Shown here: in pieces, positions 1-17,294 of the stretch
Layout of the letters: each line of letters starts with the position of its first letter
Position numbering within the stretch: position 1 is the first letter of the stretch
Assembly: GCA_030747675.1 (NCBI GenBank)
Contig: JASLKH010000045.1
Location: 1-17,511 of the forward strand
Direction: 5' to 3'
Length of the DNA stretch: 17,511 nt
From: Candidatus Thalassarchaeaceae archaeon
Lineage (GTDB): Archaea > Thermoplasmatota > Poseidoniia > Poseidoniales > Thalassarchaeaceae
Program-made: the position numbers and the translations under genes
The notes under the pieces: model-generated
What the model was told of the DNA's origin: nothing
Database searches by the model: none
The model's input: only the letters and a program-made list of their open reading frames with translations

Positions 1-1308
1 ACCCAACAGTTCACGGTACCACTCCCACGTTCCGTTTGCTGCCAATTTTGCGACAAATGCGGACTTGACCGGGGATGATGATGTGCCAGAGACCGGCATT
101 GAAAGATTGTCTCCAAATTGGATTTGGCCTACCTTGTTGGACGATGTTGTTGAAGCGACATACACGTCCCCGGCTGGAGAAACTGCAATTCCGAACAATG
201 GTGCACTGACATCTTGATCGCTAGGAGTCACCCTTTCCATCCAAATACAATTCAACGAAGAATCAAATTTTGCAATAAAGCCAAACAACACATTTCCAGG
301 GTTATTTCCAGTCGATACTGCAATTGTCGTCAAAGAACAATTAGATGTCGGCAAGAATTCAAAATAGTGGTTTTCACCCACTCTGAACGACCCTGAAATG
401 TACACATTTCCTTGTGAATCGGTGGCCAAACCACTAGGTTCGACATCTATGGGCGAATCAGTGCTTATTGATTCCTGATCATTGGTTACGACAGAAAGAA
501 CGGTCCCATTGGAATCATACATTGCAATGAAAATTCCTGTGGTGCCACACCAGCGGTTTGACTGAGGTATGGGGTTTCCTCCATTGCTTGCATTGACGAT
601 ATGGAGGTAACTTCTGCATTCACCTGAAACGACTACATTTCCATTTGGGGCAACCATAATTTCTTTGCCAATTGAGTATTGTTGACCACTAGTAGCCCCA
701 GGGCTCAACCAAAGCCAATCCCCACTAGAGCTGATTTTCGCAACATACATACACTCCACTTGGCAGGTATTTGTCTGAAATGTACCAAATTGAACGCTAC
801 CATAACTACTTCCCGTGATGTAAGCATCACCATTTGAATCAACAGCAATCGAATTGACCTGCGCAATATTACCTGAAGCGGGTCCATGTGCTGTTGATAT
901 CCAAAGCCATATTCCATTTGAGTTCATCTTTGCAACAAAAACGGTTGGGACAGGATTTGAGTCGATTTGTGATGTGTTTGCACCTCCGAAATACTGCCCA
1001 TGAGAATTCCCAGGTCGGAGGGTCCCTGTAATTAGAGCATCACCATTATGGTCGACTGCAACACCAAATGCACCATCTGTACCTATCGTACCTCCCCAAT
1101 TCGATGCAAGCCACCCCTTGGAAATTATGCCACTACCTTGATTTGAGCGTTCAGAAGAAAACATGCTTGGATATGACATTTCAAGGGTCTCAATCTGCAT
1201 ATCACTCAAGCCAGAGGCCTCGTCTTCAGGCAAAGGTGTTGGTTGCACTATCGATGCATAGGACATCAGCAGCAGAGCACAGATTGTCACCGAGAGTGTT
1301 CGGCCCAT
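1..1308 (-). CDS. Secreted/surface beta-propeller (SBBP-like repeat) protein, 3' end runs off the window
   Basis: Not in the ORF track. Hand translation from ATG 1308 is open to base 1 (436 codons): MGRTLSVTICALLLMSYASIVQP (signal-peptide-like), then blades VFVAKMNSNGIWLW, MYVAKISSSGDWLW, IFIAMYDSNGTVLS, GFIAKFDSSLNCIW, AFVAKLAANGTWEW and AVDSNGDAYITG motifs, paralogous to 1359-4679. Confidence 0.9.
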   Translation of the reverse strand, partial: MGRTLSVTICALLLMSYASIVQPTPLPEDEASGLSDMQIETLEMSYPSMFSSERSNQGSGIISKGWLASNWGGTIGTDGAFGVAVDHNGDALITGTLRPGNSHGQYFGGANTSQIDSNPVPTVFVAKMNSNGIWLWISTAHGPASGNIAQVNSIAVDSNGDAYITGSSYGSVQFGTFQTNTCQVECMYVAKISSSGDWLWLSPGATSGQQYSIGKEIMVAPNGNVVVSGECRSYLHIVNASNGGNPIPQSNRWCGTTGIFIAMYDSNGTVLSVVTNDQESISTDSPIDVEPSGLATDSQGNVYISGSFRVGENHYFEFLPTSNCSLTTIAVSTGNNPGNVLFGFIAKFDSSLNCIWMERVTPSDQDVSAPLFGIAVSPAGDVYVASTTSSNKVGQIQFGDNLSMPVSGTSSSPVKSAFVAKLAANGTWEWYRELLG

Positions 1309-1330
1309 GCCTTTGGTATGGGGGTGAAGA

Positions 1331-1345
1331 AATTAACCGATTCGG
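1331..1345 (-). promoter_or_regulatory. BRE+TATA-like promoter (CCGAATCGGTTAATT) of the left propeller gene, probably leaderless
   Basis: The first T of TTAATT is 28 nt upstream of ATG 1308. 13/15 identical to the element upstream of 4679. No SD. Confidence 0.6.
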
Positions 1346-1358
1346 GTGCGAATCCCGC

Positions 1359-4300
1359 TTAATGTTCCAATTCGGCGTCGGGAGTCCCTTCATCGAACAA
1401 GGAGTCCCACGCAGGTTCTGCAATCTCTTTCTCTGAGCCAGAAGGTAAGGCGTCTGAAGCCATCTCTTGCTCAACAATAAGGGTGTGATCATCAGTAATA
1501 GGGAGCTTTTCAGCATCTAATGCATCATCTAACTCTGCCCTGAGCCTCTCTAGGCGGATGCCCTGATGGGCACCAATTAGGCGTAGCATTAGTGCATATT
1601 CTGAACGTACAGCAATTTCCTCTAACTCTTCCTTAGATCTGGCTGCATTCAATTCTCTCTCGAAACTCGCTGCACGAGTATTTCGTGTTATGAATCCAAA
1701 GCTGAGCCATATGAAAAGTGGAACTCCAGCAAAAATCCCGATTAAATCCCAAGCACCTAGTCCAATCCCAGTCCCGGGAATCAATACCTCGAAGCTCGAG
1801 ACTGGCTTCTCACCAGGGTCTTTTGGATTAGTTCCTTCTCTAATCTCATCAATATCAGTCCAACCATCATTGTCGTCATCAGTGTCAGCATTGTCCCCAA
1901 CTCCATCCTCATCAAAGTCATAGCACTCCTTGTAATCTAAAGGAAAAATATCATCTCCATCCAAACAACCATCATTGTCATGGTCACCAGGACTCGCTAG
2001 TTTGGGCAATATGTCTATGTTGTCATTGTAGCCATCATTGTCATAATCGAAGAGAGAAGGATCTGGATTATTTCCGCTTTGATTGTCACCTAAACCATCG
2101 CCGTCTTGATCCAACCATTGCGTTGCATCATTAGGAAAAAGGTCGGGCAAACGTCCAGCTAAACTGTCACCATATCCATCACCATCTTCATCCACCTGCT
2201 GAGTTGGGTCGAAAGGAAAAGAATCTGCGTTGTTTCCTAACCCATCTCCGTCTGAGTCCAGCCATTCACTTGCATCATTTGGAAATGCATCTGGTTGGAA
2301 TCCTACTGACTCATCTCCATATCCATCTCCATCCGTGTCATTCCACTGACTAGCATCATTGACAAAGTCATCATCTTCATCTGCATAACCATCACGATCG
2401 CTGTCAGCCCAGCGCGCAGGGTCATTTGGAAACCAATCACCTTCTATCCCGTAGGGGTTGTCCCCGTATCCATCTCCATCATTGTCTTCCCACTGTGTTC
2501 CATCACTTGGAAATGAATCTGGATTCAAACCTGTTTCATTATCGCCATACCCATCACCGTCACGATCAGCCCATTGAGTAGGATCTGAATCGAAAGGCTC
2601 ACCTTCATCAGACCATCCATCTCCGTCTGAATCTACGCAACCAAAAACATCTGTAGTAGAATTTCCAGGTATATTTAGACACCCATCTCCAACATTTCCG
2701 TATGGGTTGTCTCCGTATCCATCTCCATCTGAATCAGTTTGTTGCGTTGCATCAGTAGGATACACATCTGCATTATCTCCAATGCCATCTCCGTCAAGGT
2801 CATTCCATTCAGTAGAATCTAACGGAAATGGGTCTCGAATATCAGGTCGCCCATCTCCATCCCCATCAGGGCAACCAGTTTCAAACTCGTAGGTCGAATT
2901 TCCTGCCTCACGGGGACAAAGGTCGAGATAATCATCGACACCATCAGCATCGTCATCAAGGTCTTCCAATGCATCCATACAGCCATCTGAATCAATGTCT
3001 GTGACAGAATCAGATATCCAACCAGTCATGCCGCTTGCACAACTGTCATTCACATCTAGTACAGCATCATTGTCATCATCATCATCTTCATCAGAATCAC
3101 GGCACCCATCACTGTCATGGTCGAACTGCCTAACCGAAAAAAAACCTGAAGCAGAATACTGGCAAGAATCATAGAGATCCAATATGTAATCATCATCATC
3201 ATCTTCATCGATAATATCAGGTATTGTGTCCCCATCATAATCAACGGAAAGTTTAGTCAAAAAAGTATCGTAATGTCCACGATTTGGAATAGAAAACGAG
3301 CCAAAATTAACCAAATTATTGTATTCTCCGGTGACATATAAGTTACCGATACTATCAATGGTAAGACCATTACCTCGATCAGAACCTTGACTACCACCAG
3401 CAAGCGCCCATTGTGCTGAACCATTAGTATCTAATTTGTACACAAAAACGTCGAGACCACCACCGGCAGGGCCGAGGACGATATTGTCAAAACTGACAGG
3501 CCCGGAATTATAGTCACCGGTTACATACGGATTACCATTCAAATCAACAGTAATTGCTACAGCATTTGTTGAACACGAACAATCCACTTGTTTTGCCCAC
3601 AACCACTCTCCAGTGGTGCTTAATTTCGCTACAAACCCGTTTTGAGTCCCTCCAGTCGAGAGAGTAGACGTTGAACTAACGCTCCAAGTGCTGTAGAAAT
3701 AGCCTGCGACAAAAATATCCCCATTTTGAGACATAGATATTGAATTCGCGACTTCGTTGCTAGTCGTATTTTCCGAAATAGTCAACCACAACCAGTTGCC
3801 ATCGTTATCCAATTTAGCAACTAAGGCATTCCTTCCTGAATCAGGCGTAAATGATTGGGATACACCTCCAATTGAAATCGAAAGTGTGGAAACGATATCA
3901 CCAACAATATACAAATTCCCGCTAGAGTCAATCGCAACATCATTGACCTTAGCTCCAAAATATTTTGTCCACTGAATAACTCCATCAGTGCTGATTTTAG
4001 AAATAAATCCTTGGCCAGAACCGTCTTGTTTATTACTTGAAACAAAGATATTTCCGTTGAAATCAATTTCAATATTTGCCGGGTTTTCGGACCCGGATGT
4101 GTGGCCACTAGTAGTTATTTGTGTGGCCCATAACCACGTGCCATTGTAATCTAACTTGGCGGCAAATGCGCAGATACAAGTAATACTTGCTTGGATGGTT
4201 ATGTTGTCAAAATCTATCACATTGTAGAAATTTCCAGTAACATATACATTCTCACCAACATCGACAGAGATACCTGTACCCAGATGCCCTGCGTGTCCAA

Positions 4301-4679
4301 ATGTTCCACTGTTCCCTGCAGATGCAGCCCAAAGGCATGTACCATTAGGGTCAAATTTAGCGACAAAAACCCACTGAACTCCATTTGTATTACTTGAAAC
4401 CGAGCAAGAACCAAATGAAATCGTCTCTCGGAAAGTACCTGTAATGAATATGTTACCATTTGATGAAATAGTGACGTCCCAACCTTGATCTTCGGCACTG
4501 GAACCACCCGACTCAGCCCACTCCCAACCCAACATTTGCCAGGTTGGAATATTGGTGCTGTTTGCGCCTACGAAGTCGGAAGTTTCACTTTTCTGAAGTT
4601 GAGAATAATCAATGGTATTTCCTGCGGACATAAGTAGTAGAATCAGAATTTGATACGCAATCAATCTCCGGCAGAGCAT
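1359..4679 (-). CDS. 1106-aa cell-surface protein: signal peptide, 7-bladed SBBP-like beta-propeller, thrombospondin type-3 (Ca-binding) repeats, single TM helix, cytoplasmic helical domain
   Basis: Hydrophobic N-terminus (LIAYQILILLLMSA). Seven (F/L)xxK(L/F)DxNGxxxW-type blades. 18 DxDxDG motifs ending in DNDGWTDIDEIREGTNPKDP. TM segment WDLIGIFAGVPLFIWLSFGFIT followed by a charged tail. Confidence 0.9.
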   Translation of the reverse strand: MLCRRLIAYQILILLLMSAGNTIDYSQLQKSETSDFVGANSTNIPTWQMLGWEWAESGGSSAEDQGWDVTISSNGNIFITGTFRETISFGSCSVSSNTNGVQWVFVAKFDPNGTCLWAASAGNSGTFGHAGHLGTGISVDVGENVYVTGNFYNVIDFDNITIQASITCICAFAAKLDYNGTWLWATQITTSGHTSGSENPANIEIDFNGNIFVSSNKQDGSGQGFISKISTDGVIQWTKYFGAKVNDVAIDSSGNLYIVGDIVSTLSISIGGVSQSFTPDSGRNALVAKLDNDGNWLWLTISENTTSNEVANSISMSQNGDIFVAGYFYSTWSVSSTSTLSTGGTQNGFVAKLSTTGEWLWAKQVDCSCSTNAVAITVDLNGNPYVTGDYNSGPVSFDNIVLGPAGGGLDVFVYKLDTNGSAQWALAGGSQGSDRGNGLTIDSIGNLYVTGEYNNLVNFGSFSIPNRGHYDTFLTKLSVDYDGDTIPDIIDEDDDDDYILDLYDSCQYSASGFFSVRQFDHDSDGCRDSDEDDDDDNDAVLDVNDSCASGMTGWISDSVTDIDSDGCMDALEDLDDDADGVDDYLDLCPREAGNSTYEFETGCPDGDGDGRPDIRDPFPLDSTEWNDLDGDGIGDNADVYPTDATQQTDSDGDGYGDNPYGNVGDGCLNIPGNSTTDVFGCVDSDGDGWSDEGEPFDSDPTQWADRDGDGYGDNETGLNPDSFPSDGTQWEDNDGDGYGDNPYGIEGDWFPNDPARWADSDRDGYADEDDDFVNDASQWNDTDGDGYGDESVGFQPDAFPNDASEWLDSDGDGLGNNADSFPFDPTQQVDEDGDGYGDSLAGRLPDLFPNDATQWLDQDGDGLGDNQSGNNPDPSLFDYDNDGYNDNIDILPKLASPGDHDNDGCLDGDDIFPLDYKECYDFDEDGVGDNADTDDDNDGWTDIDEIREGTNPKDPGEKPVSSFEVLIPGTGIGLGAWDLIGIFAGVPLFIWLSFGFITRNTRAASFERELNAARSKEELEEIAVRSEYALMLRLIGAHQGIRLERLRAELDDALDAEKLPITDDHTLIVEQEMASDALPSGSEKEIAEPAWDSLFDEGTPDAELEH
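1816..3242 (-). repeat. Thrombospondin type-3-like coding repeat array
   Basis: Recurrent ~23-aa units of the form FPxDxxQWxDxDGDGYGDN. The first units carry Cys pairs (DSC...DGC, DLC...TGC). The DNA repeats are degenerate and in frame. Confidence 0.85.
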
Positions 4680-4700
4680 GGTTTGGCATAGCGGTTCATG

Positions 4701-4732
4701 AATTAACTAATTCGGACGATAAATCCGAATTA
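4701..4732 (-). promoter_or_regulatory. BRE+TATA-like promoter (CCGAATTAGTTAATT) overlapping a perfect 9-bp inverted repeat
   Basis: The first T of TTAATT is 27 nt upstream of ATG 4679. TAATTCGGA (4708-4716)-N7-TCCGAATTA (4724-4732) lies just after the queD stop. Confidence 0.6.
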
Positions 4733-4734
4733 AA

Positions 4735-5187
4735 TCACCTTAGTTGCCATGAAGCCCAAGACTTTGGAGTTTCTCGAACATGCATGGCCACAAGCCGCAA
4801 TTGATTTCCATATGTGCTTTGAATATGGGGGTCGACCTGTTCAAAGGCCCATTTGGCAAGGTTCTCGGCTGTTGGAATAAAGTCCACAACCACCGTTCGA
4901 TGATTAGGGCCCATAACATCCAATGCTGTTCGCGCATTTTCATCTCCTGAATAAACGACAAATGCATGATCAACCACATCATGGACATGTTCTTTGAGAA
5001 TGGCAGAAACATCACTGAAATCGATTAACATGCCTTCATCAGACACACCTTCAACATCGACCACATCGCCCTCAATCTCAGCCTCCCATCGGTAGCGGTG
5101 CCCGTGTAGATGGCAGCACTTGCTCTTGTGGTTGGGTACTCTATGCCCCGTATCAGTTTCAATCCAGCGTCGTATTCTTGTGGTCAT
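4735..5187 (-). CDS. queD: 6-carboxy-5,6,7,8-tetrahydropterin synthase QueD
   Basis: TGH...KCCHLHGHRY (Zn His ligands and catalytic Cys), DF, DHAF, PTAENLA and ETP motifs. ATGA overlap with the queC stop and AGGAG SD. Confidence 0.93.
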   Translation of the reverse strand: MTTRIRRWIETDTGHRVPNHKSKCCHLHGHRYRWEAEIEGDVVDVEGVSDEGMLIDFSDVSAILKEHVHDVVDHAFVVYSGDENARTALDVMGPNHRTVVVDFIPTAENLAKWAFEQVDPHIQSTYGNQLRLVAMHVRETPKSWASWQLR

Positions 5188-5957
5188 ATTCTCATCTCCT
5201 GTTCAACTTTTAGCGCATTGGCAAGCACAGATTCCCATGATTCAACATATCTCACAGGGTCCTTGCGACCAATTGCATGAAAAGCCAAAATCCGCTCTAC
5301 ATCCGCTCCACTGCGGCCCGATGAACGTCCTTCCGAATCTGGATTGTAGGATGTGTTCGTATTGGCAAATACTGTATTGAAATCAAGATTGAGTGTGGAC
5401 AGTGCATCCTCAGCATCTCGTAGAATACCCTCCTTGTCTCCGTGAATATATGGAAGGTGAAAAGAGACTTTTTCACTATCCCAATTACCAACCTCAAATG
5501 CGTGTGAAATCGCTTCATAGAATTCGGGTCTACAATCTGGATAGATGGCATGGTCACCACTGTGAACTCCTAGTGCAATCACAACATTAGTCTCTTCACG
5601 TAGCGCGACTGAAAGAGCATATCCATAGAGGATTGATGCAAATATGGCATTACGATTCGGCACTACTGTCTGTTTCATCTGTTCCTCTTCATAATGCCCT
5701 TCAGGTACATCGTAACCATCTGTAGTGAGGGCCGAATGGAAAATACCCATGGCTGAACTGAGGTCTGCAATCCTGTGTTCAACTTCAATTCCGTTTGATG
5801 CCAAGTAAGCAATATTCGCCTTTGCACGTTCCAACTCAATACTGTGCTTTTGACCATAATTGTAGGACAAGCAACTGACAGTGTAACCATCCGCAAGCAG
5901 TCGCATCAATAGCCCTGTGCTGTCCATACCACCTGAAAGCGCCATCACTGCCCGCAT
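5184..5957 (-). CDS. queC: 7-cyano-7-deazaguanine (preQ0) synthase QueC, variant lacking the C-terminal Zn cysteines
   Basis: SGGMDS PP-loop, YGQKH, VVPNRNAIF, GVH and YPDCRPEF motifs. Start moved to ATG 5957 (TGATG overlap with the queE stop), giving 257 aa. Confidence 0.92.
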   Translation of the reverse strand: MRAVMALSGGMDSTGLLMRLLADGYTVSCLSYNYGQKHSIELERAKANIAYLASNGIEVEHRIADLSSAMGIFHSALTTDGYDVPEGHYEEEQMKQTVVPNRNAIFASILYGYALSVALREETNVVIALGVHSGDHAIYPDCRPEFYEAISHAFEVGNWDSEKVSFHLPYIHGDKEGILRDAEDALSTLNLDFNTVFANTNTSYNPDSEGRSSGRSGADVERILAFHAIGRKDPVRYVESWESVLANALKVEQEMRI

Positions 5958-6556
5958 CAGAGCACCCCCATCCATTTATGCGTCTGTAAGCTCAATCTCC
6001 AACCAGGACTTTCTTTGACAATCTTTTCAGTGATCTGAAACGACTTACCATTTTCTTCAACGGAGTTAGAATCAATGTAGCACGGTTGGATGAAGTGATG
6101 ATCGAATCCTTTTTTCAGGTCATCATACATGTCTAAATCTTGACCACAGTAAACAACTTTCAATTCATTTCCATTGCGTTGCTTGATTGACGCTTTGGGA
6201 TACAACTGATCCTTTGGCGAGACACAAATCCAATCGATAATGGGGTCAACTAAAATTGTCCCATTGGTCTCAATTGAAAGATTAATATCATGTTTTTTGA
6301 GTTCTCCTCCAATGGTTTCCAAATCTTGCATCGCTGGCTCACCACCTGTGAAAATCACACGATCACAATTGTAGGAAAGGACTTCTTTAACAATAGAATC
6401 TAATGTTCTTTCTTCATATGTTAAGAAGTCAGTATCACACCATTCACAGCGTAGGTTACAATTACCAAATCGAATGAAAATGTGGGGTATTCCTGAATGA
6501 AAGCCTTCGCCCTGAACTGAATGAAAAATCTCGACAACAGGGTACATCTGGGACAT
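5957..6556 (-). CDS. queE: 7-carboxy-7-deazaguanine synthase QueE (radical SAM)
   Basis: EIFHSVQGEG, RFGNCNLRCEWCDT (CxxxCxxC), FTGGEP, IETNG, VSPK, IQP and WRLSLQTHK motifs. Confidence 0.95.
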   Translation of the reverse strand: MSQMYPVVEIFHSVQGEGFHSGIPHIFIRFGNCNLRCEWCDTDFLTYEERTLDSIVKEVLSYNCDRVIFTGGEPAMQDLETIGGELKKHDINLSIETNGTILVDPIIDWICVSPKDQLYPKASIKQRNGNELKVVYCGQDLDMYDDLKKGFDHHFIQPCYIDSNSVEENGKSFQITEKIVKESPGWRLSLQTHKWMGVL

Positions 6557-6565
6557 ATAATCATC

Positions 6566-7135
6566 TCAAAGTGGATTCGTTCGAATGAGTTGCATTAGTT
6601 CAGAACGAGCCTCTGCCTTGTCGAAGAATACTCCACGCATTGCTGAAGTCGTCATAATTGCGTTTTGTTTCTTTACTCCACGGCATTGCATACATCCATG
6701 CGATGCTTCGATAATAACAGCGCATCCAAGTGGTTGTAAATGTTCTTCCAAGTCATCTGCAACATTTTTCGTAATTCGTTCTTGATTCTGCAATCTGTGG
6801 GAATGCAACTCGACAATTCGTGCTAATTTACTGATACCAACAATCCTTTCAGTAGGGATGTATGCAACATGTGCACGTCCCCTAAATGGTTGCAAGTGAT
6901 GCTCACAGGTACTGTGGAACTCAACATCTCTGAGTAGTACAATACCATCATAACCTTCTCCATTGAATGTAGATTCAAGGACTTCAGCAGACGATTGGTG
7001 ATATCCAGCGAATATTTCATCCCATGACTTAATGACACGTTTTGGAGTATCTACAAGCCCTTCTCTTCCAGTATCTTCGCCTAAATAATCGAGTAAAGTT
7101 CGCACGGCACTTTCTGCTTCATCTTTACTAACCAT
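6566..7135 (-). CDS. folE: GTP cyclohydrolase I, type IA (FolE)
   Basis: REGLVDTPKRV, STCEHHLQPF, GISKLARIV, RLQNQER and HGCMQCRGV motifs. GGTGA SD 4 nt upstream. Confidence 0.95.
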   Translation of the reverse strand: MVSKDEAESAVRTLLDYLGEDTGREGLVDTPKRVIKSWDEIFAGYHQSSAEVLESTFNGEGYDGIVLLRDVEFHSTCEHHLQPFRGRAHVAYIPTERIVGISKLARIVELHSHRLQNQERITKNVADDLEEHLQPLGCAVIIEASHGCMQCRGVKKQNAIMTTSAMRGVFFDKAEARSELMQLIRTNPL

Positions 7136-7309
7136 TTATTCACCACCAATGCGTCCATGACGGGCATCAATCATGTCCAGTTGATCGAGCATTTTCCGGC
7201 AAGCAGTCCTGATTGCATCAGCTACGCTGACAAACTTTCCACCGTCACCAACATGGTGCTTGAGGTCGTCCAGTAATTCCTGTGGTATATCCAAACTTAC
7301 TTTGGGCAT
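7136..7309 (-). CDS. 57-aa ribbon-helix-helix (CopG/Arc/MetJ-type) transcriptional regulator
   Basis: Not in the ORF track. MPKVSLDIPQELLDDLKHHVGDGGKFVSVADAIRTACRKMLDQLDMIDARHGRIGGE*: beta-strand KVSLDI, helix A, G-x-F-x-S turn, helix B (ADAIRTA). Its TAA directly abuts the folE ATG. Confidence 0.88.
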   Translation of the reverse strand: MPKVSLDIPQELLDDLKHHVGDGGKFVSVADAIRTACRKMLDQLDMIDARHGRIGGE

Positions 7310-7330
7310 AATTCTGGGCCAATCTACACA

Positions 7331-7367
7331 GTTATCAATATTACTCCAGTAATACTGGGGTATTACG
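7331..7367 (-). promoter_or_regulatory. Promoter of the RHH-folE-queECD operon with three phased palindromic boxes (candidate RHH operator)
   Basis: TATA-like TTGATAAC begins 29 nt upstream of ATG 7309. Plus-strand boxes AATATTACT (7337-45), AGTAATACT (7348-56) and GGTATTACG (7359-67) repeat at 11 bp. Confidence 0.65.
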
Positions 7368-8613
7368 AAAGGGATTCAACAAGATCTTCGCGGTTGAATT
7401 GCTTAGAAGCCCACAAAATAGCCCCTATGGCATAAATTAGCGATGAGGAGAGCCATAAAGCAACGTGCAAGGGGTCATGGAATCCCATGAGTGATTCACG
7501 CATTGCCAAAGTTACATTGAATATTGGCAGTAAGAACCACCAGAACTCAATGCCCTCAAGGTTGACAAATTGTGCAAACATGGTTGGTCCAATGAAGACC
7601 AATATCATTGGTCCAAGAATACTACCGGCCTCTTTCACGCTGTGAGCTCGTACAGCTATTGCTAGTTCAACAGCGACGACGAAAATTGCGAAGAGTAGAA
7701 CGCTAAGGAGTAGTAGTATTGCACTTGTCAGAGAAATAGTTGGCGCCCCAAGAACATCTCCCGCAAGGAAGGCAATTGCGAACAAAAGACCCGCCATATT
7801 TGCAAGAACACTAGTGCTAGCAACAACTGCTACAGCAAGCCATTTCCCAAATAGCAAATCAGCTCTTGCAACAGGTGTGCAGAGCAGAGCTTCCATTGTC
7901 CCCCTTTCTCTTTCACCAGCAGTAAGATCGATGGAAGGCTGTATTGCTGCTGAAGCAGTCCAAAGTGCAATGACTAGTGGTATGAACATTGCAAGGCCCA
8001 TAGCGGTCTGTTCACCCTTGCTAGCAAGGTTTGCATCATCTTGATCTCCATCCCAGTGTATGGGGTCGAAGACTTCACCATAGGTTAGATTCTGTTCATC
8101 GAGAGTATTGTTGATTACATATTGTTCCCATGTTAGGATACCATCCAAGGTGCGACCTCGAGCTTCTCTAGATAACTCGCTAGTTGAATCCATTAGAATA
8201 GCATAATCATACGATATGGAGGCATTAGTATCTGTTTCTCTCAACCGTAATATGCAATACAAATCCCCATCTTCAATACCACTTTGTAACCGGTCAACAT
8301 CGTCCCCTGGTATCGAAAGTGTGCCATTGACAACCAAGGGTACTGCTGTGATAACCAAATTCCGATCAGACAATAGTTGATTCAATTGAGCAGGAATCTC
8401 TCCGTCTAATTGAATTTCGATAGCCAATTCATGCTCTGCTAATTCAGCGGCTTCTCCTTGTAAAAACAAGGGTAGAGCGATAAATATCACAGGGAATATC
8501 ATGATTGGAACAAGGACCATTGCCAGCACGGTTCTCCAATCTCTGACAAAATCAACAAGCTCTTTCTTGCATACTTCAGCGACACGTGAGACTCTAAGTC
8601 CAAATTCACTCAT
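7363..8613 (-). CDS. natB: ABC-2 type exporter permease, NatB-like
   Basis: KKELVDFVRDWRT N-terminus, large extracytoplasmic loop, GERERGTMEALLCTP and GKWLA motifs, several TM helices. Start moved to ATG 8613 (GGTGA SD, 8-nt overlap with natA). Confidence 0.8.
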   Translation of the reverse strand: MSEFGLRVSRVAEVCKKELVDFVRDWRTVLAMVLVPIMIFPVIFIALPLFLQGEAAELAEHELAIEIQLDGEIPAQLNQLLSDRNLVITAVPLVVNGTLSIPGDDVDRLQSGIEDGDLYCILRLRETDTNASISYDYAILMDSTSELSREARGRTLDGILTWEQYVINNTLDEQNLTYGEVFDPIHWDGDQDDANLASKGEQTAMGLAMFIPLVIALWTASAAIQPSIDLTAGERERGTMEALLCTPVARADLLFGKWLAVAVVASTSVLANMAGLLFAIAFLAGDVLGAPTISLTSAILLLLSVLLFAIFVVAVELAIAVRAHSVKEAGSILGPMILVFIGPTMFAQFVNLEGIEFWWFLLPIFNVTLAMRESLMGFHDPLHVALWLSSSLIYAIGAILWASKQFNREDLVESLS

Positions 8614-9421
8614 TTGAATCACCCTTCCGTGTGAACATCTTACGCCATGCCTTTTCCATCCTTCCTTCAGTCTCAGTTTCATTCGAGCGCGATTCATCTT
8701 GTGTTAGTGAAACATATGCATCTTCTAGAGAATCAGTGCTAGTGGATTCCATTAGAGATTTTGGGGTCCCATTCGCCCGAATAGTACCATTGTGGATAAT
8801 TACAATTCGATCACATACCTGCTGTGCCTCAGCAAGGTGGTGAGTGCTGTAAATTACAGTGCCACCTTCGTCCCCTAATTTCCTGACAAGTTTGCGAACC
8901 ATTCTGGCACTAGTCACATCTAGTCCACCAGTGGGTTCGTCTAGGAGGAGAATTGGAGGGCCGTGCGCCAATGCCCTAATGAGGGCCGTTTTTTGGCGCA
9001 TACCACGACTGAAACCTCTTGTTGCACGATGTAAATCATCGTCAAAATTCAGAAGTTTTGCGAACCTTAGAGCCCGCGCCCATGAGTTGTCATCATCAAC
9101 GCCATTCAATCGACTGTGATAGCGAATATTTTCCCAAGCAGTCAATCTTGAATATAATCCTGTAGACTCTGGAACAACACCAATTTCGCCACGCATTTTG
9201 TGCACATCCACTTCTTTTTGGGATATGGATCCAAAAACGCGCCCATCACTTGGATGATATAATCCGCATAATAGGCGCAAAAGAGTTGTTTTACCAGCTC
9301 CATTCCCACCAACAAGACCGACAACTTCCCCGGAATAAAACTCTACACTAACATTGTCTAATGCAACGACATCCTTGAAATTCTTCGTAACATTAGCAAC
9401 AGTTAGCAAAGAATCTGACAT
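8606..9421 (-). CDS. natA: ABC exporter ATP-binding protein, NatA-like
   Basis: Walker A GGNGAGKTT, signature FSRGMRQK, Walker B LLLDEPT, H-loop STH. Confidence 0.85.
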   Translation of the reverse strand: MSDSLLTVANVTKNFKDVVALDNVSVEFYSGEVVGLVGGNGAGKTTLLRLLCGLYHPSDGRVFGSISQKEVDVHKMRGEIGVVPESTGLYSRLTAWENIRYHSRLNGVDDDNSWARALRFAKLLNFDDDLHRATRGFSRGMRQKTALIRALAHGPPILLLDEPTGGLDVTSARMVRKLVRKLGDEGGTVIYSTHHLAEAQQVCDRIVIIHNGTIRANGTPKSLMESTSTDSLEDAYVSLTQDESRSNETETEGRMEKAWRKMFTRKGDSNE

Positions 9422-9425
9422 ACAA

Positions 9426-9728
9426 TCACTTCCGACGTTTTTCTACGGTTGAATCTAAATCAGGATATACAATTGAGAGTTTATCTCCTCTTGCGAGGAT
9501 ACCACGGAGGTGCTCTTGCGACTCCTGACGTGTAATGCCGTGATCGATGAGGTTTGCAAGCATCGACAGGCCGCCTTGAATTGCTCCAGCATCGAGATAC
9601 GCATCATTAGAAATTACACCTTCAATTCTCAAAGACTCGAGCGTAGATTCGATGAATAGTATCTCTTCTCGTAATGTTATGGAATTGACATGCGGTAAGG
9701 CAATGAGGCGCTCAATGCATGTCCGCAT
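9426..9728 (-). CDS. 100-aa hypothetical protein, predicted helical
   Basis: Fills the gap between mce and natA on the same strand (24-nt and 4-nt spacers), with a GAGG SD-like element. No family recognised. Confidence 0.7.
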   Translation of the reverse strand: MRTCIERLIALPHVNSITLREEILFIESTLESLRIEGVISNDAYLDAGAIQGGLSMLANLIDHGITRQESQEHLRGILARGDKLSIVYPDLDSTVEKRRK

Positions 9729-9752
9729 GAACCTGCCTCAGCACATACGTTA

Positions 9753-10172
9753 TCACTCTTTTCTGAACTCCAATAGTTCAACTAATACGCCACCAGTGCT
9801 CTTTGGATGGACAAAAGTGACCCGAGAACCTCCTGCACCAATTGAGGGTTCTGGTTGTGTAAACACTACATTATTAGCCAGCAACTCAACAATCAATGAG
9901 TCGAGATCATCGACTTCAAATGCAATCTGTTGAACTCCTTGCCCCCTCTTAGTTAAGAATCGTCCAACAGGAGTATCTTCACCTAATGACTCCAATAATT
10001 CAATTCTGACAGGATTCCCTGAAGCGGTTGCAGAGAAAAAGCGTATATTGACACCTTGCTCTAGATTTACTTCATCCTCTTCAGATTGTAGAAGTCCCAG
10101 TAAACGCCAAAACTTTCCTGAAGATTCTAAATCATTAACAGCAATTCCAATATGGTCTAAACGTATTTTCAT
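9753..10172 (-). CDS. mce: Methylmalonyl-CoA epimerase (VOC fold)
   Basis: LDHIGIAV, IELLE, GVQQIAFEVDD and FVHPKSTGGVLVEL motifs, directly after the mutase. Start moved to ATG 10172 (8 nt after the mcmA1 stop), giving 139 aa. Confidence 0.88.
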   Translation of the reverse strand: MKIRLDHIGIAVNDLESSGKFWRLLGLLQSEEDEVNLEQGVNIRFFSATASGNPVRIELLESLGEDTPVGRFLTKRGQGVQQIAFEVDDLDSLIVELLANNVVFTQPEPSIGAGGSRVTFVHPKSTGGVLVELLEFRKE

Positions 10173-10180
10173 ATTATCAC

Positions 10181-11761
10181 TCAAAAACCACTTGGGGCAT
10201 TCCATGTGCCAAATACATCCTTCATTGAATTCATAATCTCTCCAACAGTGCAATTCGCTTTTACCGCTGCAAGAATTAATGGGAAAAGGTTCTGATCACT
10301 GGCTGCTGCCTCCCTAATTCTATCCAGGCAAGATGTTGCCATGTCTGAATCTCTACTGTCACGTAAATCTGACAATTGCTTACCCTGCTCGTCATGTATC
10401 GCAGGATTGAGGGCTTGAGGAGTAGTTGTCACAGAATCGTCCATCTCAGCATAGTTTACGCCGACGATTTGACGCTCTAATGATTCAATATCCTGCATTT
10501 GCTTCCATGCAGACTCGTGTATCCGCCGTTGTTGGAAGCCTGTTTTCAGAGCTTCTAATGAGCCGCCCATCGCATCAATTTCACAGATTAAATCACGAGC
10601 ATCGGAGGCAATAGTTTCAGTTAGTTTTTCCACGTAGTATGATCCAGCAAGCGGATCAACAACATCAGATAAACCAGTTTCTGAAGCAAGAATTTGTTGT
10701 GTTCTCAATGCAATGGTGACACTTTTTTCGGTCGGCAATCCGATGGCCTCATCAAATGAATTTGTGTGCAATGATTGCGTGCCACCAAGAACTGCAGACA
10801 TTGCCTGATACGAAACCCGTGCAATATTATTCAGGGGTTGTTGAGCTGTTAGAGTCACACCTGCGGTTTGTGTATGGAATCTCAGCATTGCTGATTTTGG
10901 GTTTGTGGGATTATACCTCTCAGTTACCAAATCATACCACAATTTTCTTGCAGCACGGAACTTCGATATTTCCTCGAAAAAGTCATTATGACATCCAAAG
11001 AAAAAGGAAAGTCTCGGTGCGAAGTCGTCAATATTGAGGCCAGTTTTGAGAGCCGAATCGACATACTCAAGGGCATTGGAAAGTGTAAATGCTACCTCTT
11101 CTACAGCAGTAGATCCGGCTTCTCTCATGTGATAACCTGAGATACTAACTGTATTCCACATTGGAATATTTTCATTACAATATTGGATTAGATCAGTTGT
11201 TAATCGCATACTTGGTTCAGGAGGGAATACATGCGTACCTCTGGCAATATATTCTTTCAGAATATCATTTTGCACAGTTCCTCGCAATTTTGAGCAGGGC
11301 ACTCCTTGTTCTTCAGCAACAGCAACATAGAGTGCAAGCAAAATTATTGCGGGGCTATTGATTGTCATTGAAGTGGAGACTTTGTCCAATGGAATTCCAT
11401 TAAGGAGATTACGCATATCAACTATTGAATCGATTGCCACTCCAACACGACCGACTTCTCCGTAACTAAGTTGATCATCACTATCCATTCCCAATTGAGT
11501 TGGTAAATCAAATGCTATTGATAATCCGCTTTGACCATTATCCAATAATGAATGAAATCGCAAATTAGTATCTTTTGCACTGCTAAAACCAGCGTACTGC
11601 CGCATCGTCCACAAACGACTTCTATACATCGTTTCATGAACACCTCGCGTGTATGGAGGTGCTCCTGGGTGGCCTGGTTCAGCAGGCATCGATTCTTTAA
11701 GAGGTACATCTGGTATTGGTATACCACCAAGAGTTTCGAAGGAATCCTTGCGTGACTTCAT
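10181..11761 (-). CDS. mcmA1: Methylmalonyl-CoA mutase, substrate-binding (large) subunit without B12-binding domain
   Basis: PYTRG, WTMRQYAGF (Tyr at the specificity position), AFDLPTQLG, QNDILKEYIARGT, SGYHMREAG, HTQTAG, HTNSFDEA and DPLAGSY motifs. The GAGGTGA SD favours ATG 11761 over TTG 11764. Confidence 0.92.
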   Translation of the reverse strand: MKSRKDSFETLGGIPIPDVPLKESMPAEPGHPGAPPYTRGVHETMYRSRLWTMRQYAGFSSAKDTNLRFHSLLDNGQSGLSIAFDLPTQLGMDSDDQLSYGEVGRVGVAIDSIVDMRNLLNGIPLDKVSTSMTINSPAIILLALYVAVAEEQGVPCSKLRGTVQNDILKEYIARGTHVFPPEPSMRLTTDLIQYCNENIPMWNTVSISGYHMREAGSTAVEEVAFTLSNALEYVDSALKTGLNIDDFAPRLSFFFGCHNDFFEEISKFRAARKLWYDLVTERYNPTNPKSAMLRFHTQTAGVTLTAQQPLNNIARVSYQAMSAVLGGTQSLHTNSFDEAIGLPTEKSVTIALRTQQILASETGLSDVVDPLAGSYYVEKLTETIASDARDLICEIDAMGGSLEALKTGFQQRRIHESAWKQMQDIESLERQIVGVNYAEMDDSVTTTPQALNPAIHDEQGKQLSDLRDSRDSDMATSCLDRIREAAASDQNLFPLILAAVKANCTVGEIMNSMKDVFGTWNAPSGF

Positions 11762-11851
11762 CAACTCACCTCTGAATGCTACGAGTGCACACGCTCCTTC
11801 AAGCGTTCCGCCCTACAGTTTCCAAAAGACATTGTTTGTTGCGATACACGG

Positions 11852-12376
11852 TCAGCAACCGCAGTCGTCGCCACAATCATCCTTCTCTTCATGTTCGTGA
11901 TGATGATGGTGGCCTCCGGGACCATGAGCATGCCCATGCTGGGTTTCTTCCTCAGTAGCAGCACGAATCTCCATGACTTCAACATCGAATGCAAGGCTCT
12001 TTCCTGCCATGGGGTGGTTGAAATCACATTTGACATTATCATTAGTGACTGCGACTATGCGAAAAGGTCCGATATCAGACATCAACATCATGCCAAGCTC
12101 TAAATCAACATCATCGGGAAATTGATCTCTCGGCATTTCAACAACTTTGCTCTCTTCAATGTCTCCGTATGCATCAGCCGGTTCCAAAGTAAATTGTCTA
12201 GATTCTCCGACTTTTGCACCCATCATTGCGTTTTCAAAACCAGGAATCATATTTGCATGACCAACGAGGAATGCTAGAGGCTCACCGTCTCGACTAGAGT
12301 CGAAGACTTCACCCGAATCTGGGTGTGTTCCTGTATAATGCACGCTTGCTACTGTATCTTTTTCTATTGTTGTCAT
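11852..12376 (-). CDS. slyD: FKBP-type peptidyl-prolyl isomerase SlyD with His/Cys-rich C-terminal tail
   Basis: VHYTG, FDSS, IPGFE, AYG, DFNHPMAGKSLAFDVEV motifs; tail HGHAHGPGGHHHHHEHEEKDDCGDDCGC. GGTGA SD. Confidence 0.92.
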   Translation of the reverse strand: MTTIEKDTVASVHYTGTHPDSGEVFDSSRDGEPLAFLVGHANMIPGFENAMMGAKVGESRQFTLEPADAYGDIEESKVVEMPRDQFPDDVDLELGMMLMSDIGPFRIVAVTNDNVKCDFNHPMAGKSLAFDVEVMEIRAATEEETQHGHAHGPGGHHHHHEHEEKDDCGDDCGC

Positions 12377-12380
12377 TTCT

Positions 12381-13106
12381 TCACCTTCTTGTTGTTAAAC
12401 TATCAATTAAATTGATGATCCGATCTCCACACTTTTGCGAAATAATACCTGCCTCAATCTTGCCTACAATGAAATCCTTCGCTTCATTGACACCTTGACG
12501 TTCACCTTTGGCCCATGCTTGCCCTAGGACATTCGAACGATGCTCATCTTCGACTTTCTCTTCATCGAGAATCTTCCGTACATCGTACTTGAATTCCTGA
12601 TATTTTCCACGATGGAGCTTCCTCACTTTCTTGGAAGGACTCTGAGGACGGTTGCGCTTTCCAGGGCGTCCAGTTGGGCGCTTTTGTTGCTTCTGTGCAG
12701 GCTTTTTCTTGAATGGATTAGTTGGTTCAGTCTTCTTTGGTGGACGTGTGTCACCTGAAGTGGATGGTGTGGTACTACTGACCCTTGAAACAGTTTCCTT
12801 GATCAACGATTTAGCCTTCAAATCTGATTTTTTTGAAAGGGGAGAATCATCCTTAACAGACTGCTTTCGAAGGCCAACGCCCTTACCTGCTGATGCAGGG
12901 CCGCGAGAGGATGGACTGTGGGGCTTAGGTGCTGTTTTAGGCGTTATTTTAGCACCACCACCAGGTGGTGGTGGAGGTGAATTTGAACCGCGGCTGGGGG
13001 GAGCAGGAGCAGAATCTCGACGCTTGACAACCCGCTTCTTACTGGGGTTATTATCGGGTCGACTAGACTTCTTGAATGGGTTTGATGGTTCATCCCTACG
13101 TGCCAA
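12381..13106 (-). CDS. Highly basic protein: ~160-aa Pro/Lys/Ser/Arg-rich disordered region plus ~75-aa helical C-terminal domain
   Basis: ORF with TTG start, a candidate promoter CGAAC-CC-TTATGAT 42 nt upstream and a GAGG element. Its stop codon forms part of the slyD SD. Confidence 0.8.
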   Translation of the reverse strand: MARRDEPSNPFKKSSRPDNNPSKKRVVKRRDSAPAPPSRGSNSPPPPPGGGAKITPKTAPKPHSPSSRGPASAGKGVGLRKQSVKDDSPLSKKSDLKAKSLIKETVSRVSSTTPSTSGDTRPPKKTEPTNPFKKKPAQKQQKRPTGRPGKRNRPQSPSKKVRKLHRGKYQEFKYDVRKILDEEKVEDEHRSNVLGQAWAKGERQGVNEAKDFIVGKIEAGIISQKCGDRIINLIDSLTTRR

Positions 13107-13169
13107 GTCAATCGTGCCTCAACAATGGCTGATGCCGCCCCATCATAAGGGTTCGTTATGACTAAACTT

Positions 13170-14231
13170 CTAATTCCAAACAATATCAGTTTCATCAGTA
13201 CGCAAATCTTGTCGGATGGCAGAATCGGTAATCTTCGTTGGCTCACCCCACAATAATTGCAACCGACCAAGCGTAGCAATCATACTTCCATTGTCAATAC
13301 ACAGAGATTTTTCAGGGACATGGGAAGTAGCACCTCGCGATTCTGCCATTAGATCGCACATTTCTCTGATGCGTGAATTACAGGCTACACCTCCGCCTAA
13401 CAGCAATTCGGTTTTACCAGAATGGGCCATTGCACGCTCTGCAACTTCAACACACGCTGCAAATGCATGTTCCTGGAGTGACCAACAGACTGCTTCTAGC
13501 GGTTTACCTTTCTCAATAAGATTTAGAGCGGCATTCAGAATCCCGGAGAATGCCAAATCCATACCTTGGACGGCATACGGCAATTCCAGTCCATCCAAAG
13601 ATGGTTTTGGGTTTTTTTCCAACCACTTAAGTGCCAACTCTTCGACTCGTGGACCACCAGGAAAAGGAATTCCTTGCGTACGTGCGAATTTATCGAGCAT
13701 ATTTCCAATACCGATATCCAATGTTTCACCCAGTACACGATATCTTCCATCCAATCGAGCAATAATTTGAGTATTGCCGCCACTAACATACAGTAGAACC
13801 GGGTCATCACAATTACAACGTTCTCGCCCTACTTCTATGTGTGCAACACAATGATTCACTCCAATCAATGGAACATCCAGTTTGATTGATAGAGCCCTAG
13901 CAACACTTGCACCAACTCTCAAGCAAGGTCCAAGACCTGGGCCCTGAGAAAATGAAATGGCAACAACATCACTGATATCAAAAACCTCCTCAGCAAGTAG
14001 ATCAGATAGCAATCGACTTGCAGCTTGAGAGTGATGGTCCGCTGCTTCCCTTGGATGAATTCCTCCTTCTACAGGCCTTACAAAGGCAGATTTTGATTGA
14101 CCAGGGGCTCCCAATCCATCTACCCATCCAAACGAGAACGTATGTGCCGTTGACTCAATTCCAATGATTATCCCTCCGGCATCTCGACTGAGATTAGCCT
14201 TGCAAGATGGTGTAAATGAACCAGCGACCAC
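13170..14231 (-). CDS. kae1: tRNA N6-threonylcarbamoyladenosine (t6A) synthesis protein Kae1 (KEOPS), stand-alone; start uncertain
   Basis: GIESTAHT, GPGLGPCLRVG, NHCVAHIE, SGGNT, DIGIGNMLDKFAR, GGVACN and IDNGSMIA motifs. No Bud32 kinase fusion. The only in-frame canonical start is GTG 14231, while conserved sequence begins near 14174. Confidence 0.9.
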   Translation of the reverse strand: MVAGSFTPSCKANLSRDAGGIIIGIESTAHTFSFGWVDGLGAPGQSKSAFVRPVEGGIHPREAADHHSQAASRLLSDLLAEEVFDISDVVAISFSQGPGLGPCLRVGASVARALSIKLDVPLIGVNHCVAHIEVGRERCNCDDPVLLYVSGGNTQIIARLDGRYRVLGETLDIGIGNMLDKFARTQGIPFPGGPRVEELALKWLEKNPKPSLDGLELPYAVQGMDLAFSGILNAALNLIEKGKPLEAVCWSLQEHAFAACVEVAERAMAHSGKTELLLGGGVACNSRIREMCDLMAESRGATSHVPEKSLCIDNGSMIATLGRLQLLWGEPTKITDSAIRQDLRTDETDIVWN

Positions 14232-14246
14232 GCATTGCGGACTGTA

Positions 14247-14260
14247 CGTACCCTTTCAAG
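14247..14260 (+). promoter_or_regulatory. BRE/TATA-like promoter of hutI (CGTAC-CC-TTTCAAG)
   Basis: The first T is 28 nt upstream of ATG 14282, the same geometry as the other apparently leaderless genes in this window. Confidence 0.45.
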
Positions 14261-14281
14261 CCTGATGTCACTCGGCAGTCT

Positions 14282-15535
14282 ATGCGCACTGTGCTGTTAG
14301 ATGCGGGCCCCGTCGCGCATTTGGCCACAGGTGATTGTAGCAAACCACTTACAGGCTCTATGATGAGCAGCGACTCATTAGTTGACAGTAGCAATCTAGG
14401 GTTCGTGATTGAGAATGGTATTTTTACCAAAATCGCCCAGACGGAAGAAATTGAATCCGAGTATGGTCGGAAGGATTCTATCTCACTACATGGTAGAGCA
14501 ATTGTACCCGGTTTGATAGATGCTCACACCCACTTGCTATGGGGTGGTGACCGTTCTGATGAAATGAGATTGAGGCAGCAAGGTAAATCGTACCAAGACA
14601 TTGCACAATTGGGTGGCGGAATCAATTACACTGTCGAAGAAACAAGGAATTTATCTGTCAATGATTTATTCAAGAAGGGTAAATCACGTTTAAGCTATTC
14701 ACTTAGAAATGGGACTACTGCCCTAGAAACAAAATCAGGTTATGGCTTGGATACAGAATCTGAGCTTAAATTGCTAGAAGTAGCTAATCAGTTGAAGTCT
14801 GATTCAGACATGGACCTTTCATTAACATGGCTAGGAGCCCACAATGCCCCACCAGAGATAGATATCAATACCTACGTCGATCAAATTCTATCAGAGCAGT
14901 TGCCTGCTGTAATTGAGCAAGGCATAGCCAAGTCAGCAGATGTATTCTGTGAAGAAGGCTGGTTCACTCTCGAACATACAGAACGCATTTGCAAAGAAGC
15001 GATTTCTAAGAATATGGAAATTCGCTTGCATGTCGACGAATTTTCAGATGGAGATGGACTCGCCCTTGCTGCAGAACTTGGAGCAAAAACTGCTGACCAT
15101 GCACTGCACTCATCTGATCAAAACCGCGAGTATGCAAATAAAGCTGGAACTATGCAAGGCTTTCTCCCTGGTACACCTTATGTCCATGGTTCGAATTTCT
15201 GGCCACCCATTCAAGATTGCATAGACAATGACTACGCTTGGTCGCTTGCATCAGACTTCAACCCTAATTGCCAATCTTTGTCATTACCTATGGTTGGTTC
15301 AATTGTGACACATCGGATGAATATCGATCCCCTCGCAGCATTAGTTGCAGTTACGAGAAATCCTGCTTCGGCCTTGATCAGAGATGATGGGCTTGCTCAT
15401 GGAGTGATTGCAGAAGGTGCTTCAGCGAATTTGAATATTTTGCGGGGAACCAAAATTGAAGGGTGGTGTCAGACGCCTGGAGATTCTCCATTTGGTACCA
15501 CAATCTGTAATGGTAAATTCTACAATCATGAATAA
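14282..15535 (+). CDS. hutI: Imidazolonepropionase (amidohydrolase superfamily)
   Basis: PGLIDAHTHLLWGGDR, SYQDIAQLGGGI, ETKSGYGL, LGAH, DVFCE, HVDEF, DH and LASDFNP motifs. Start moved from 14216 to ATG 14282 on promoter geometry. Confidence 0.88.
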   Translation: MRTVLLDAGPVAHLATGDCSKPLTGSMMSSDSLVDSSNLGFVIENGIFTKIAQTEEIESEYGRKDSISLHGRAIVPGLIDAHTHLLWGGDRSDEMRLRQQGKSYQDIAQLGGGINYTVEETRNLSVNDLFKKGKSRLSYSLRNGTTALETKSGYGLDTESELKLLEVANQLKSDSDMDLSLTWLGAHNAPPEIDINTYVDQILSEQLPAVIEQGIAKSADVFCEEGWFTLEHTERICKEAISKNMEIRLHVDEFSDGDGLALAAELGAKTADHALHSSDQNREYANKAGTMQGFLPGTPYVHGSNFWPPIQDCIDNDYAWSLASDFNPNCQSLSLPMVGSIVTHRMNIDPLAALVAVTRNPASALIRDDGLAHGVIAEGASANLNILRGTKIEGWCQTPGDSPFGTTICNGKFYNHE

Positions 15536-15825
15536 ATAATAAAACTATTCTGATTTGTATATAATTTTAAACTTAACCAATTAAACTTTAACGTTTTTTC
15601 AATATAGGCATTGAGATGAGATGATCAGATTTTCAGAAATACGGTATCTTATTCCTGGAATGCTGATATCTCAAATGCCATCAGTGCTGATAATCTATGT
15701 TATCCGCCATTATACATTATCTACAAATTTAATACACTTACAACCAGGCTCTCAGTACAACGTTTGGAATACCTAATATGCAGAAAATTGAATATTTGTA
15801 CCTCTTAGGGGGGGTTCGAAGGGTC

Positions 15826-15843
15826 AAAAATTGAAATTTCTGT
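15826..15843 (-). terminator. Possible T-rich terminator downstream of tRNA-Val
   Basis: Minus-strand ATTTCAATTTTT follows the CCA end. Archaeal terminators are commonly oligo-T. Confidence 0.3.
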
Positions 15844-15919
15844 TGGTGGGCCCGGCCAGAATTGAACTGGCGATCTTCGCCATGTCAAGGCGACGTCATA
15901 ACCCCTAGACCACGGGCCC
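15844..15919 (-). tRNA. trnV: tRNA-Val (anticodon GAC), CCA encoded, no intron
   Basis: GGGCCCG acceptor stem, D-arm with G15, anticodon arm TCGCC-TTGACAT-GGCGA, T-arm GCCAG-TTCAATT-CTGGC, ending CGGGCCC-A-CCA; 76 nt. Upstream CGAAT-CA-TCCATATA promoter-like element. Confidence 0.97.
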
Positions 15920-15973
15920 TTGCTTTGTCGACAAACGATGTGTATATGGATGATTCGATATCCAAAAGACAAT

Positions 15974-16126
15974 TCAGCCAATGATTTTGGAAATCTTACC
16001 AGTGCATCCTTCTTGAGAACAAGTTCCACCTACACGTTTACGCCCATTTCCCATAGTAAAAAGCTCAGGACTAGAAATAGGTCCGTATGTTTTGCATTTT
16101 AGGCAGAATCCTTCGTAAGCAGTCAT
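15974..16126 (-). CDS. 50-aa four-cysteine microprotein, DUF5679-like putative zinc finger
   Basis: Not in the ORF track. MTAYEGFCLKCKTYGPISSPELFTMGNGRKRVGGTCSQEGCTGKISKIIG*, with CxxC, NGR and GTCxxxxC. It has its own CGAAT-CG-TTCATAT promoter-like element. The family match is from memory. Confidence 0.75.
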   Translation of the reverse strand: MTAYEGFCLKCKTYGPISSPELFTMGNGRKRVGGTCSQEGCTGKISKIIG

Positions 16127-16226
16127 GTCAACAAATGTCTCACTCTGGCGACAGATATGAACGATTCGCTCCTTTAACCAGTTAAATGAAATAACATTAA
16201 TTACAATTTAAAAAGGGATTATTAAA

Positions 16227-16243
16227 TTGAATGTTCTATTCAA
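16227..16243. terminator. Short hairpin downstream of alaX in an AT-rich spacer
   Basis: TTGAAT-GTTCT-ATTCAA, a perfect 6-bp inverted repeat 5 nt after the alaX stop. Confidence 0.3.
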
Positions 16244-16248
16244 ATTAG

Positions 16249-17284: not shown

Positions 17285-17294
17285 CGAACCACAC

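Follow-up and report, generated by a model that had tools for sequence, protein, structure and literature searches.

The RHH gene and its operon

We analysed a 17,511-nucleotide (nt) stretch of DNA from a Candidatus Thalassarchaeaceae archaeon of the order Poseidoniales (assembly GCA_030747675.1, contig JASLKH010000045.1, positions 1 to 17,511), referred to below as the window. The subject is a short gene for a ribbon-helix-helix (RHH) protein of 57 amino acids (aa), which stands as the first cistron before the genes that make the 7-deazaguanine preQ0. PreQ0 is the precursor of archaeosine, a modification of tRNA at G15 that is widespread in archaea. The locus contains the following features.

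7338 to 7366, no strand assigned: candidate operator of three heptamers with 11-bp spacing (7360-7366, 7349-7355 and 7338-7344)
7331 to 7338, minus strand: TATA-like box TTGATAAC, starting 29 nt 5' of the RHH ATG and abutting or overlapping the proximal heptamer
7136 to 7309, minus strand: RHH regulator gene, first cistron (57-aa open reading frame, AlphaFold2 (AF2) model, conservation)
6566 to 7135, minus strand: folE, GTP cyclohydrolase I (PF01227, E = 1.5e-69; NCBIfam FolE above cut-off)
5957 to 6556, minus strand: queE, 7-carboxy-7-deazaguanine synthase, a radical SAM enzyme (Radical_SAM; best NCBIfam model queE_Cx14CxxC)
5184 to 5975, minus strand: queC, 7-cyano-7-deazaguanine synthase (PF06508, E = 1.8e-41, domain from residue 8)
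4735 to 5187, minus strand: queD, 6-carboxytetrahydropterin synthase (PF01242, E = 4.4e-26; best NCBIfam model QueD)
4709 to 4731, minus strand: hairpin with an 8-bp stem (AATTCGGA...TCCGAATT) directly 3' of the queD stop, read from the sequence

The original prediction placed the 57-aa reading frame directly against folE, and its coordinates hold (minus strand, 7309 to 7136). The TAA stop occupies 7138-7136, the folE ATG follows directly at 7135, and the final RHH codons are GGT GGT GAA TAA. The 9-nt gap, TGATG and ATGA proposed for the downstream junctions were borne out as well: the folE TGA (6568-6566) is separated by 9 nt from the queE ATG at 6556, queC and queD meet in ATGA, and with a queC start at 5957 the end of queE and the beginning of queC coincide in TGATG. 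Initiation at the alternative in-frame ATG (5975) would give queC a 19-nt overlap with queE, and the start at 5957 is more likely. The hairpin behind queD is a possible operon end.

Pfam and NCBIfam agree with the proposed identities of FolE, QueE, QueC and QueD. The match of QueE to queE_Cx14CxxC (E = 2.7e-39, 135 bits) did not reach the equivalog cut-off of 240, and QueD scored 80 bits with the NCBIfam QueD model at a cut-off of 89. The open frames holding QueC are ca. 380-430 aa long in many Poseidoniales genomes, versus 263 aa in the window; the longer frames would fit QueC-MsrB fusions or insertions, and an msrB gene is absent from the window.

A riboswitch had been thought absent, and Rfam searches gave the same answer, with no riboswitch in the window at gathering score, none in 7050-7500 at E ≤ 1, and no match to a preQ1-I, -II or -III aptamer in the 5' leader. 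The position of the TATA-like box, 29 nt from the RHH start codon, agrees with the prediction too. If the transcription start is placed from this box, the RHH mRNA is probably leaderless or has a short leader. The source genome (1.68 Mb, 78% complete) carries one TGT-family gene (on contig C77) and a gene for Vut_1 (COG1738, yhhQ) was not found in it, which makes it plausible that de novo preQ0 feeds archaeosine.

We regard the 57-aa frame as a real gene because 174 of the 201 Poseidoniales genomes sampled contain it, each with a single match. Amino acid identity is 68-100% among the matches listed, and the protein is better conserved than FolE from the same loci. An AF2 model based on a 52-sequence alignment has a predicted local distance difference test score (pLDDT) of 90.5 and consists of an extended segment (residues 1-9), a helix (10-17), a 10-residue loop and a long helix (29-50). 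This is the layout of the RHH superfamily, an N-terminal β-strand followed by two helices. A wide VIA-align search covered 48,161 chains, and RHH proteins make up almost all of the 50 structural neighbours listed (Z 3.7-6.2). Foldseek found no significant match to the model in the PDB, and a sequence profile gave only marginal PDB matches, to ORF56 and NikR. A prediction for a two-copy complex scored 0.39 at a mark of 0.42 and was used neither for nor against a dimer. Arc/Mnt, MetJ, CopG and omega are structural neighbours with no significant sequence relationship; what is specific to the new family is the heptamer sequence, the 10-residue loop between helices A and B, and the long helix B with its conserved tail.

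In the model, the C-terminal extension prolongs helix B to residue 50 and adds a short tail, and this part is highly conserved (L41, D42, D45, D48, G52 and R53). Together with H19, G21, K25 and F26 these residues are invariant or nearly so in two phyla, and since they lie outside the DNA-reading strand they hint at a further function, such as forming a pocket for a ligand or contacts between dimers. Neither Pfam nor NCBIfam revealed a sensor domain in the protein. DUF7120 (PF23434) has weak precomputed matches only, on the haloarchaeal homologs P0181 and P0187; the window protein did not match it at E ≤ 0.1, and we found no mention of DUF7120 in the literature. RefSeq names members of the family only 'ribbon-helix-helix domain-containing protein'.

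Two identities were rejected. NikR models match the RHH part only, with 12.6 bits against 111, and the C-terminal metal-binding (ACT-like) domain of NikR is absent from the 57 aa. For aCcr1 (NF053762) the window protein gave no match at E ≤ 0.1, and its haloarchaeal homologs scored 22-27 bits against 60.

Conservation of the neighbourhoods and the candidate operator

The order RHH-folE-queE-queC is kept in 30 of 30 Poseidoniales loci, covering both families of the order, and likewise in one genome of a sister order in the same class. Beyond the class, ca. 195 other sampled genomes of the phylum gave three weak matches. The family is narrow (111 clusters at 50% identity), and its more distant members are haloarchaeal proteins with 54-58% identity. 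In Halobacteria the homolog lies immediately 5' of Vut_1/COG1738 (yhhQ) in 72 of 80 loci. Experiments support a role of YhhQ/COG1738 as a preQ0 transporter, and bacterial yhhQ is subject to preQ1 riboswitch control (PMC5372724). An even sample of the class (61 genomes within G201-G264) contained RHH in 59, Vut_1 in 57 and QueE in 38 genomes, and RHH adjoined Vut_1 in 41 of the 59 RHH-positive genomes. One genome of this sample (G222) lacks RHH, Vut_1 and QueE together, and another (G201) has two queE loci.

Other arrangements join RHH to the same pathway in different ways. The RHH-Vut_1 pair recurs in further lineages (L166-L169), a Halococcus megaplasmid carries RHH-queD-queE-queC, two loci have the order queD-queE-queC-RHH (L088, L144), two genomes have RHH-queC-queE (G207, G230), and in one arrangement RHH overlaps queD. 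Such a change of deazaguanine partner genes between lineages is what one expects from a functional link and not from inherited synteny. The original prediction had called for a check of co-occurrence with que genes across archaea, and the homologs indeed precede folE-queE-queC or yhhQ/Vut_1, or adjoin queD, queC or queE. On a brine metagenome contig (L037:883-2277), queC and RHH are followed by a 464-aa protein without a Pfam match.

The same survey bears on the idea that the protein is an antitoxin or a copy-control protein of mobile elements, which we consider highly improbable. RHH antitoxins are numerous among the top structural neighbours, and of the four haloarchaeal megaplasmid copies the two examined (H1, H2) stand beside ISH3 transposases. 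Against this, none of the 30 Poseidoniales and 80 Halobacteria loci has an adjacent toxin gene, the neighbours being que genes, yhhQ, tatC and FtsJ-TRAM. The gene belongs to the core of an order, with one copy per genome, phage records contain no homolog, and the Halococcus plasmid copy heads que genes. Random or toxin-bearing neighbourhoods had been named beforehand as what would speak against a que regulator, and neither was seen in the loci examined.

The candidate operator reads GTAATAC-N4-GTATTAC-N4-GTAATAT on the minus strand, and the ABC-2 permease gene upstream has its stop codon within the distal heptamer. Two or three heptamers (GTAWTAC or nGAATAC) with 11-bp spacing are found 5' of RHH in all 30 Poseidoniales loci, many of which also have TTGATAW or a related A/T box at the TATA position. 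The heptamers are also kept in Poseidoniales loci without the upstream ATP-binding cassette (ABC) genes, so they are not merely a terminator of the ABC operon. In the window, these genes encode an ABC-2 permease and an ABC ATPase (7363-9421, minus strand) directly upstream of RHH on the same strand; they are kept beside RHH in many, not all, Poseidoniales loci.

Phased palindromic heptamers of this kind fit the binding habits of other RHH proteins. RHH repressor dimers read DNA by an antiparallel β-ribbon and bind repeated sites cooperatively; the subsites of Arc have a spacing of ca. 11 bp, omega recognises 7-bp heptads, and MetJ, for which a metabolite is co-repressor, recognises tandem boxes.

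The operator is rare outside RHH promoters. The source genome has the heptamer triple (20 of 21 matches) once only, and nine other heptamer pairs score ≥12 there compared with ca. 32 expected from shuffles. No further regulon members emerged there, with no other pair above chance and none near the TGT gene on C77. Of five near-complete relatives, three have pairs without mismatch, confined to the RHH promoter, and in a fourth the pair at this promoter carries one mismatch. A pair score of ≥12 was reached by 28 of 30 Poseidoniales RHH upstream regions and by 1 of 633 background windows. Within 91 kb plus 824 kb of sequence, the exact motif TATTM-N6-KAATA is confined to positions 5' of RHH, in 25 of the 30 Poseidoniales loci and 16 of the 80 from Halobacteria. 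In a third lineage (L166), four to five phased heptamers precede the RHH-Vut_1 pair.

The source genome also encodes a second RHH-domain protein, of 122 aa with an N-terminal RHH and a C-terminal domain (G000:C9:6233-6601; L002:1270-1638, minus strand). An operator-like GTATTGC-N4-GAAATAC lies ca. 54 nt upstream of its gene (C9:6655), G023 and G027 have phased sites resembling it, and this may be a paralogous regulator system.

For the haloarchaeal que genes we scored 30 queD-queE-(folE)-queC loci, all distinct from the RHH locus. Their best-scoring phased sites stand immediately 5' of queD, for example GTATTC-N6-GAATAC in L147, L152, L156 and L163. In Halobacteria a pair score of ≥12 was found for 7 of 30 queD upstream regions, 6 of 80 RHH upstream regions and 0 of 12,730 control windows in all GC bins, counts that overstate independence because the genomes are related. 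In one genome (G238) Vut_1 is missing, RHH is retained, and a perfect palindrome precedes queD. High-scoring sites of the type ATATTAC-N4-GTAATAT also recur inside haloarchaeal queD, ca. 250 nt into the gene (L135:2498, L136:1257, L138:2498, L152:1204, L153:1213 and L162:1213); they could reflect a coding constraint or a second operator.

With both protein and operator at hand, the family can be compared with the known archaeal RHH regulators. CdrS (NF058555; PMC7439475, PMC8406309) is likewise a small archaeal RHH protein (ca. 60 aa) encoded by the first cistron of an operon thought to be self-regulated, and it binds a symmetric motif near promoters. It differs in being a separate haloarchaeal paralog tied to ftsZ2 with ca. 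18 genomic sites, whereas the window gene has a unique local operator and preQ0 genes. The cell-cycle repressor aCcr1 of Sulfolobales (NF053762; PMC9976878) acts by the mechanism that we propose for RHH and differs from the family in lineage and regulon.

We find it very unlikely that RHH is simply the Poseidoniales counterpart of CdrS as a global cell-division regulator, or of aCcr1, with its position before folE incidental. CdrS is indeed the top NCBIfam match of the window protein (E = 6e-6), which is the best CdrS-like open reading frame of its own genome, and the boxes bound by aCcr1 and CdrS resemble the operator in their palindromic GTA..TAC core. The match, however, is far under the cut-off (26.1 bits versus 100), and the true haloarchaeal CdrS (117-120 bits) is encoded at another locus than the yhhQ-linked protein, which scores 25-29 bits. 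Over 54 aa the window protein shares 57% of its residues with the yhhQ-linked type, and over 41 aa it shares 34% with CdrS. No ftsZ was found near the window gene, whose neighbours are folE-queE-queC-queD and the ABC-2 transporter; its operator is unique in the genome, and the 18 published chromatin immunoprecipitation sites of CdrS do not include que or yhhQ genes.

The remaining part of the window holds genes of other kinds. A 1106-aa protein (1359-4679, minus strand) with SBBP β-propeller repeats, many acidic TSP3-like calcium-binding repeats and a C-terminal membrane segment is probably a surface protein. A tRNA gene lies at 15847-15919 on the minus strand (Rfam, 65 bits). Other genes encode methylmalonyl-CoA mutase together with a glyoxalase-fold protein, Kae1/TsaD and an AlaX-like tRNA_SAD protein.

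A proposed repressor of preQ0 supply

The neighbourhoods and the conserved phased operator over the promoter, which recurs before haloarchaeal queD, support the predicted role of an autoregulatory RHH protein in que control. In our view RHH is likely a dedicated autoregulated repressor of 7-deazaguanine (preQ0) supply. Cooperatively binding RHH dimers would occupy two or three palindromic heptamers, which are set 11 bp or one helical turn apart and overlap the B recognition element (BRE)/TATA region of the gene's own promoter. The bound protein would keep the pre-initiation complex from assembling and so repress the RHH-folE-queE-queC-queD transcript, and since this transcript includes RHH itself the circuit would be autoregulated. 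In Halobacteria the orthologous protein would control yhhQ plus the separate queD-queE-(folE)-queC operons through a common operator, so that the regulon would comprise both synthesis and salvage there, compared with preQ0 synthesis in Poseidoniales. We observe the gene, its conservation, the RHH fold of the model, the neighbourhoods and an operator that is shared between lineages and unique in the genome; from these we infer DNA binding, repression as the sign of control and cooperative dimer arrays.

An activating role at the que and yhhQ promoters appears improbable to us, though the site positions are not uniform. In some haloarchaeal loci the best motif, and 8 of the 16 exact-motif sites, lie 73-97 nt 5' of the called start, a placement that would fit activation or a mis-called start, and CdrS appears to activate ftsZ1 (PMC8406309). 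In Poseidoniales, by contrast, the proximal heptamer reaches up to or into the TATA-like box (about -29 to -35), and in many haloarchaeal loci the motif spans the region from TATA box to start codon, a repressive position in the case of aCcr1.

Besides these distant motif positions, several points weigh against a dedicated repressor of preQ0 supply. The window protein scored 13.5 bits with Pfam RHH_1 (E = 0.071), below the gathering cut-off of 20.5. Strict-palindrome TATTM-N6-KAATA matches in five haloarchaeal genomes are only about twice as frequent as in the control, and the sole such match at a que locus lies inside the queD coding sequence. In about a quarter of the sampled Halobacteria RHH is not beside yhhQ. 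Three loci of Natrialbaceae and Natronomonas (L053, L067 and L075) have RHH in front of an Opp/Dpp-type ABC importer, a permease plus two ATPases with oligo_HPY; the sequence 5' of RHH differs at these loci and the usual motif is absent, which may reflect diverged specificity or an alternative salvage transporter. Synteny within one order may be inherited rather than selected. Joint absence of RHH and queC from at least 18 Poseidoniales genomes was rejected as independent evidence because linked genes drop out of metagenome-assembled genomes together; the discordant genomes that were checked (e.g., G053, G113, G010 and G178) had contig edges at these positions. Finally, a protein of 57 aa offers little room for a ligand pocket, and binding, repression and ligand are all things that we infer.

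The question of a ligand divides the remaining readings. We tentatively suggest, as a speculation, that preQ0 or a related deazapurine might act as co-repressor through the H19-x-G21/K25-F26 loop and the end of the C-terminal helix with its tail (D42, D45, D48, G52 and R53). That RHH itself binds preQ0, 7-carboxy-7-deazaguanine (CDG) or another 7-deazapurine as co-repressor, and in this way governs synthesis and salvage across Poseidoniia and Halobacteria, is a possibility that we regard as rather doubtful. The same protein and regulon could also operate with no small-molecule input, as a plain negative autoregulator that buffers the operon or is set by another protein or a modification; this we view as conceivable, if on the unlikely side. 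The small size of the protein fits this alternative, as do a model that amounts to a minimal RHH fold with a longer helix B and the lack of a detected sensor domain. Arc-, Mnt- and CopG-type RHH repressors are known to act ligand-free. Pointing the other way, the near-invariance of the loop and C-terminal residues across two phyla suggests an extra function, and a regulon of synthesis plus uptake resembles those of metabolite-sensing riboswitches. Bacterial preQ1 riboswitches of classes I-III act on the same gene set, preQ0/preQ1 biosynthesis and yhhQ/COG1738 (PMC5372724). They are cis-acting RNAs on the mRNA, whereas the proposed regulator is a protein at the promoter, and the analogy is functional only.

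Implications for archaeosine biology

To our knowledge, nothing is known of how archaea regulate the preQ0 supply for archaeosine. The original prediction knew of no characterised regulator of archaeosine-precursor synthesis, and our literature searches found no description of such an RHH protein acting on preQ0 supply. The protein is thus probably the first protein switch proposed for the archaeal preQ0 pathway. The family provides a concrete candidate for a protein regulator with a defined operator, both in marine Group II archaea, which are abundant, and in haloarchaea, which are amenable to genetics. The lower frequency of QueE than of Vut_1 in the even Halobacteria sample suggests that many haloarchaea rely on preQ0 salvage, and for this reason control of the transporter by RHH would be physiologically important. 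If RHH does bind a deazapurine, it would be a protein counterpart of the preQ1 riboswitch and among the smallest metabolite-sensing transcription factors known.

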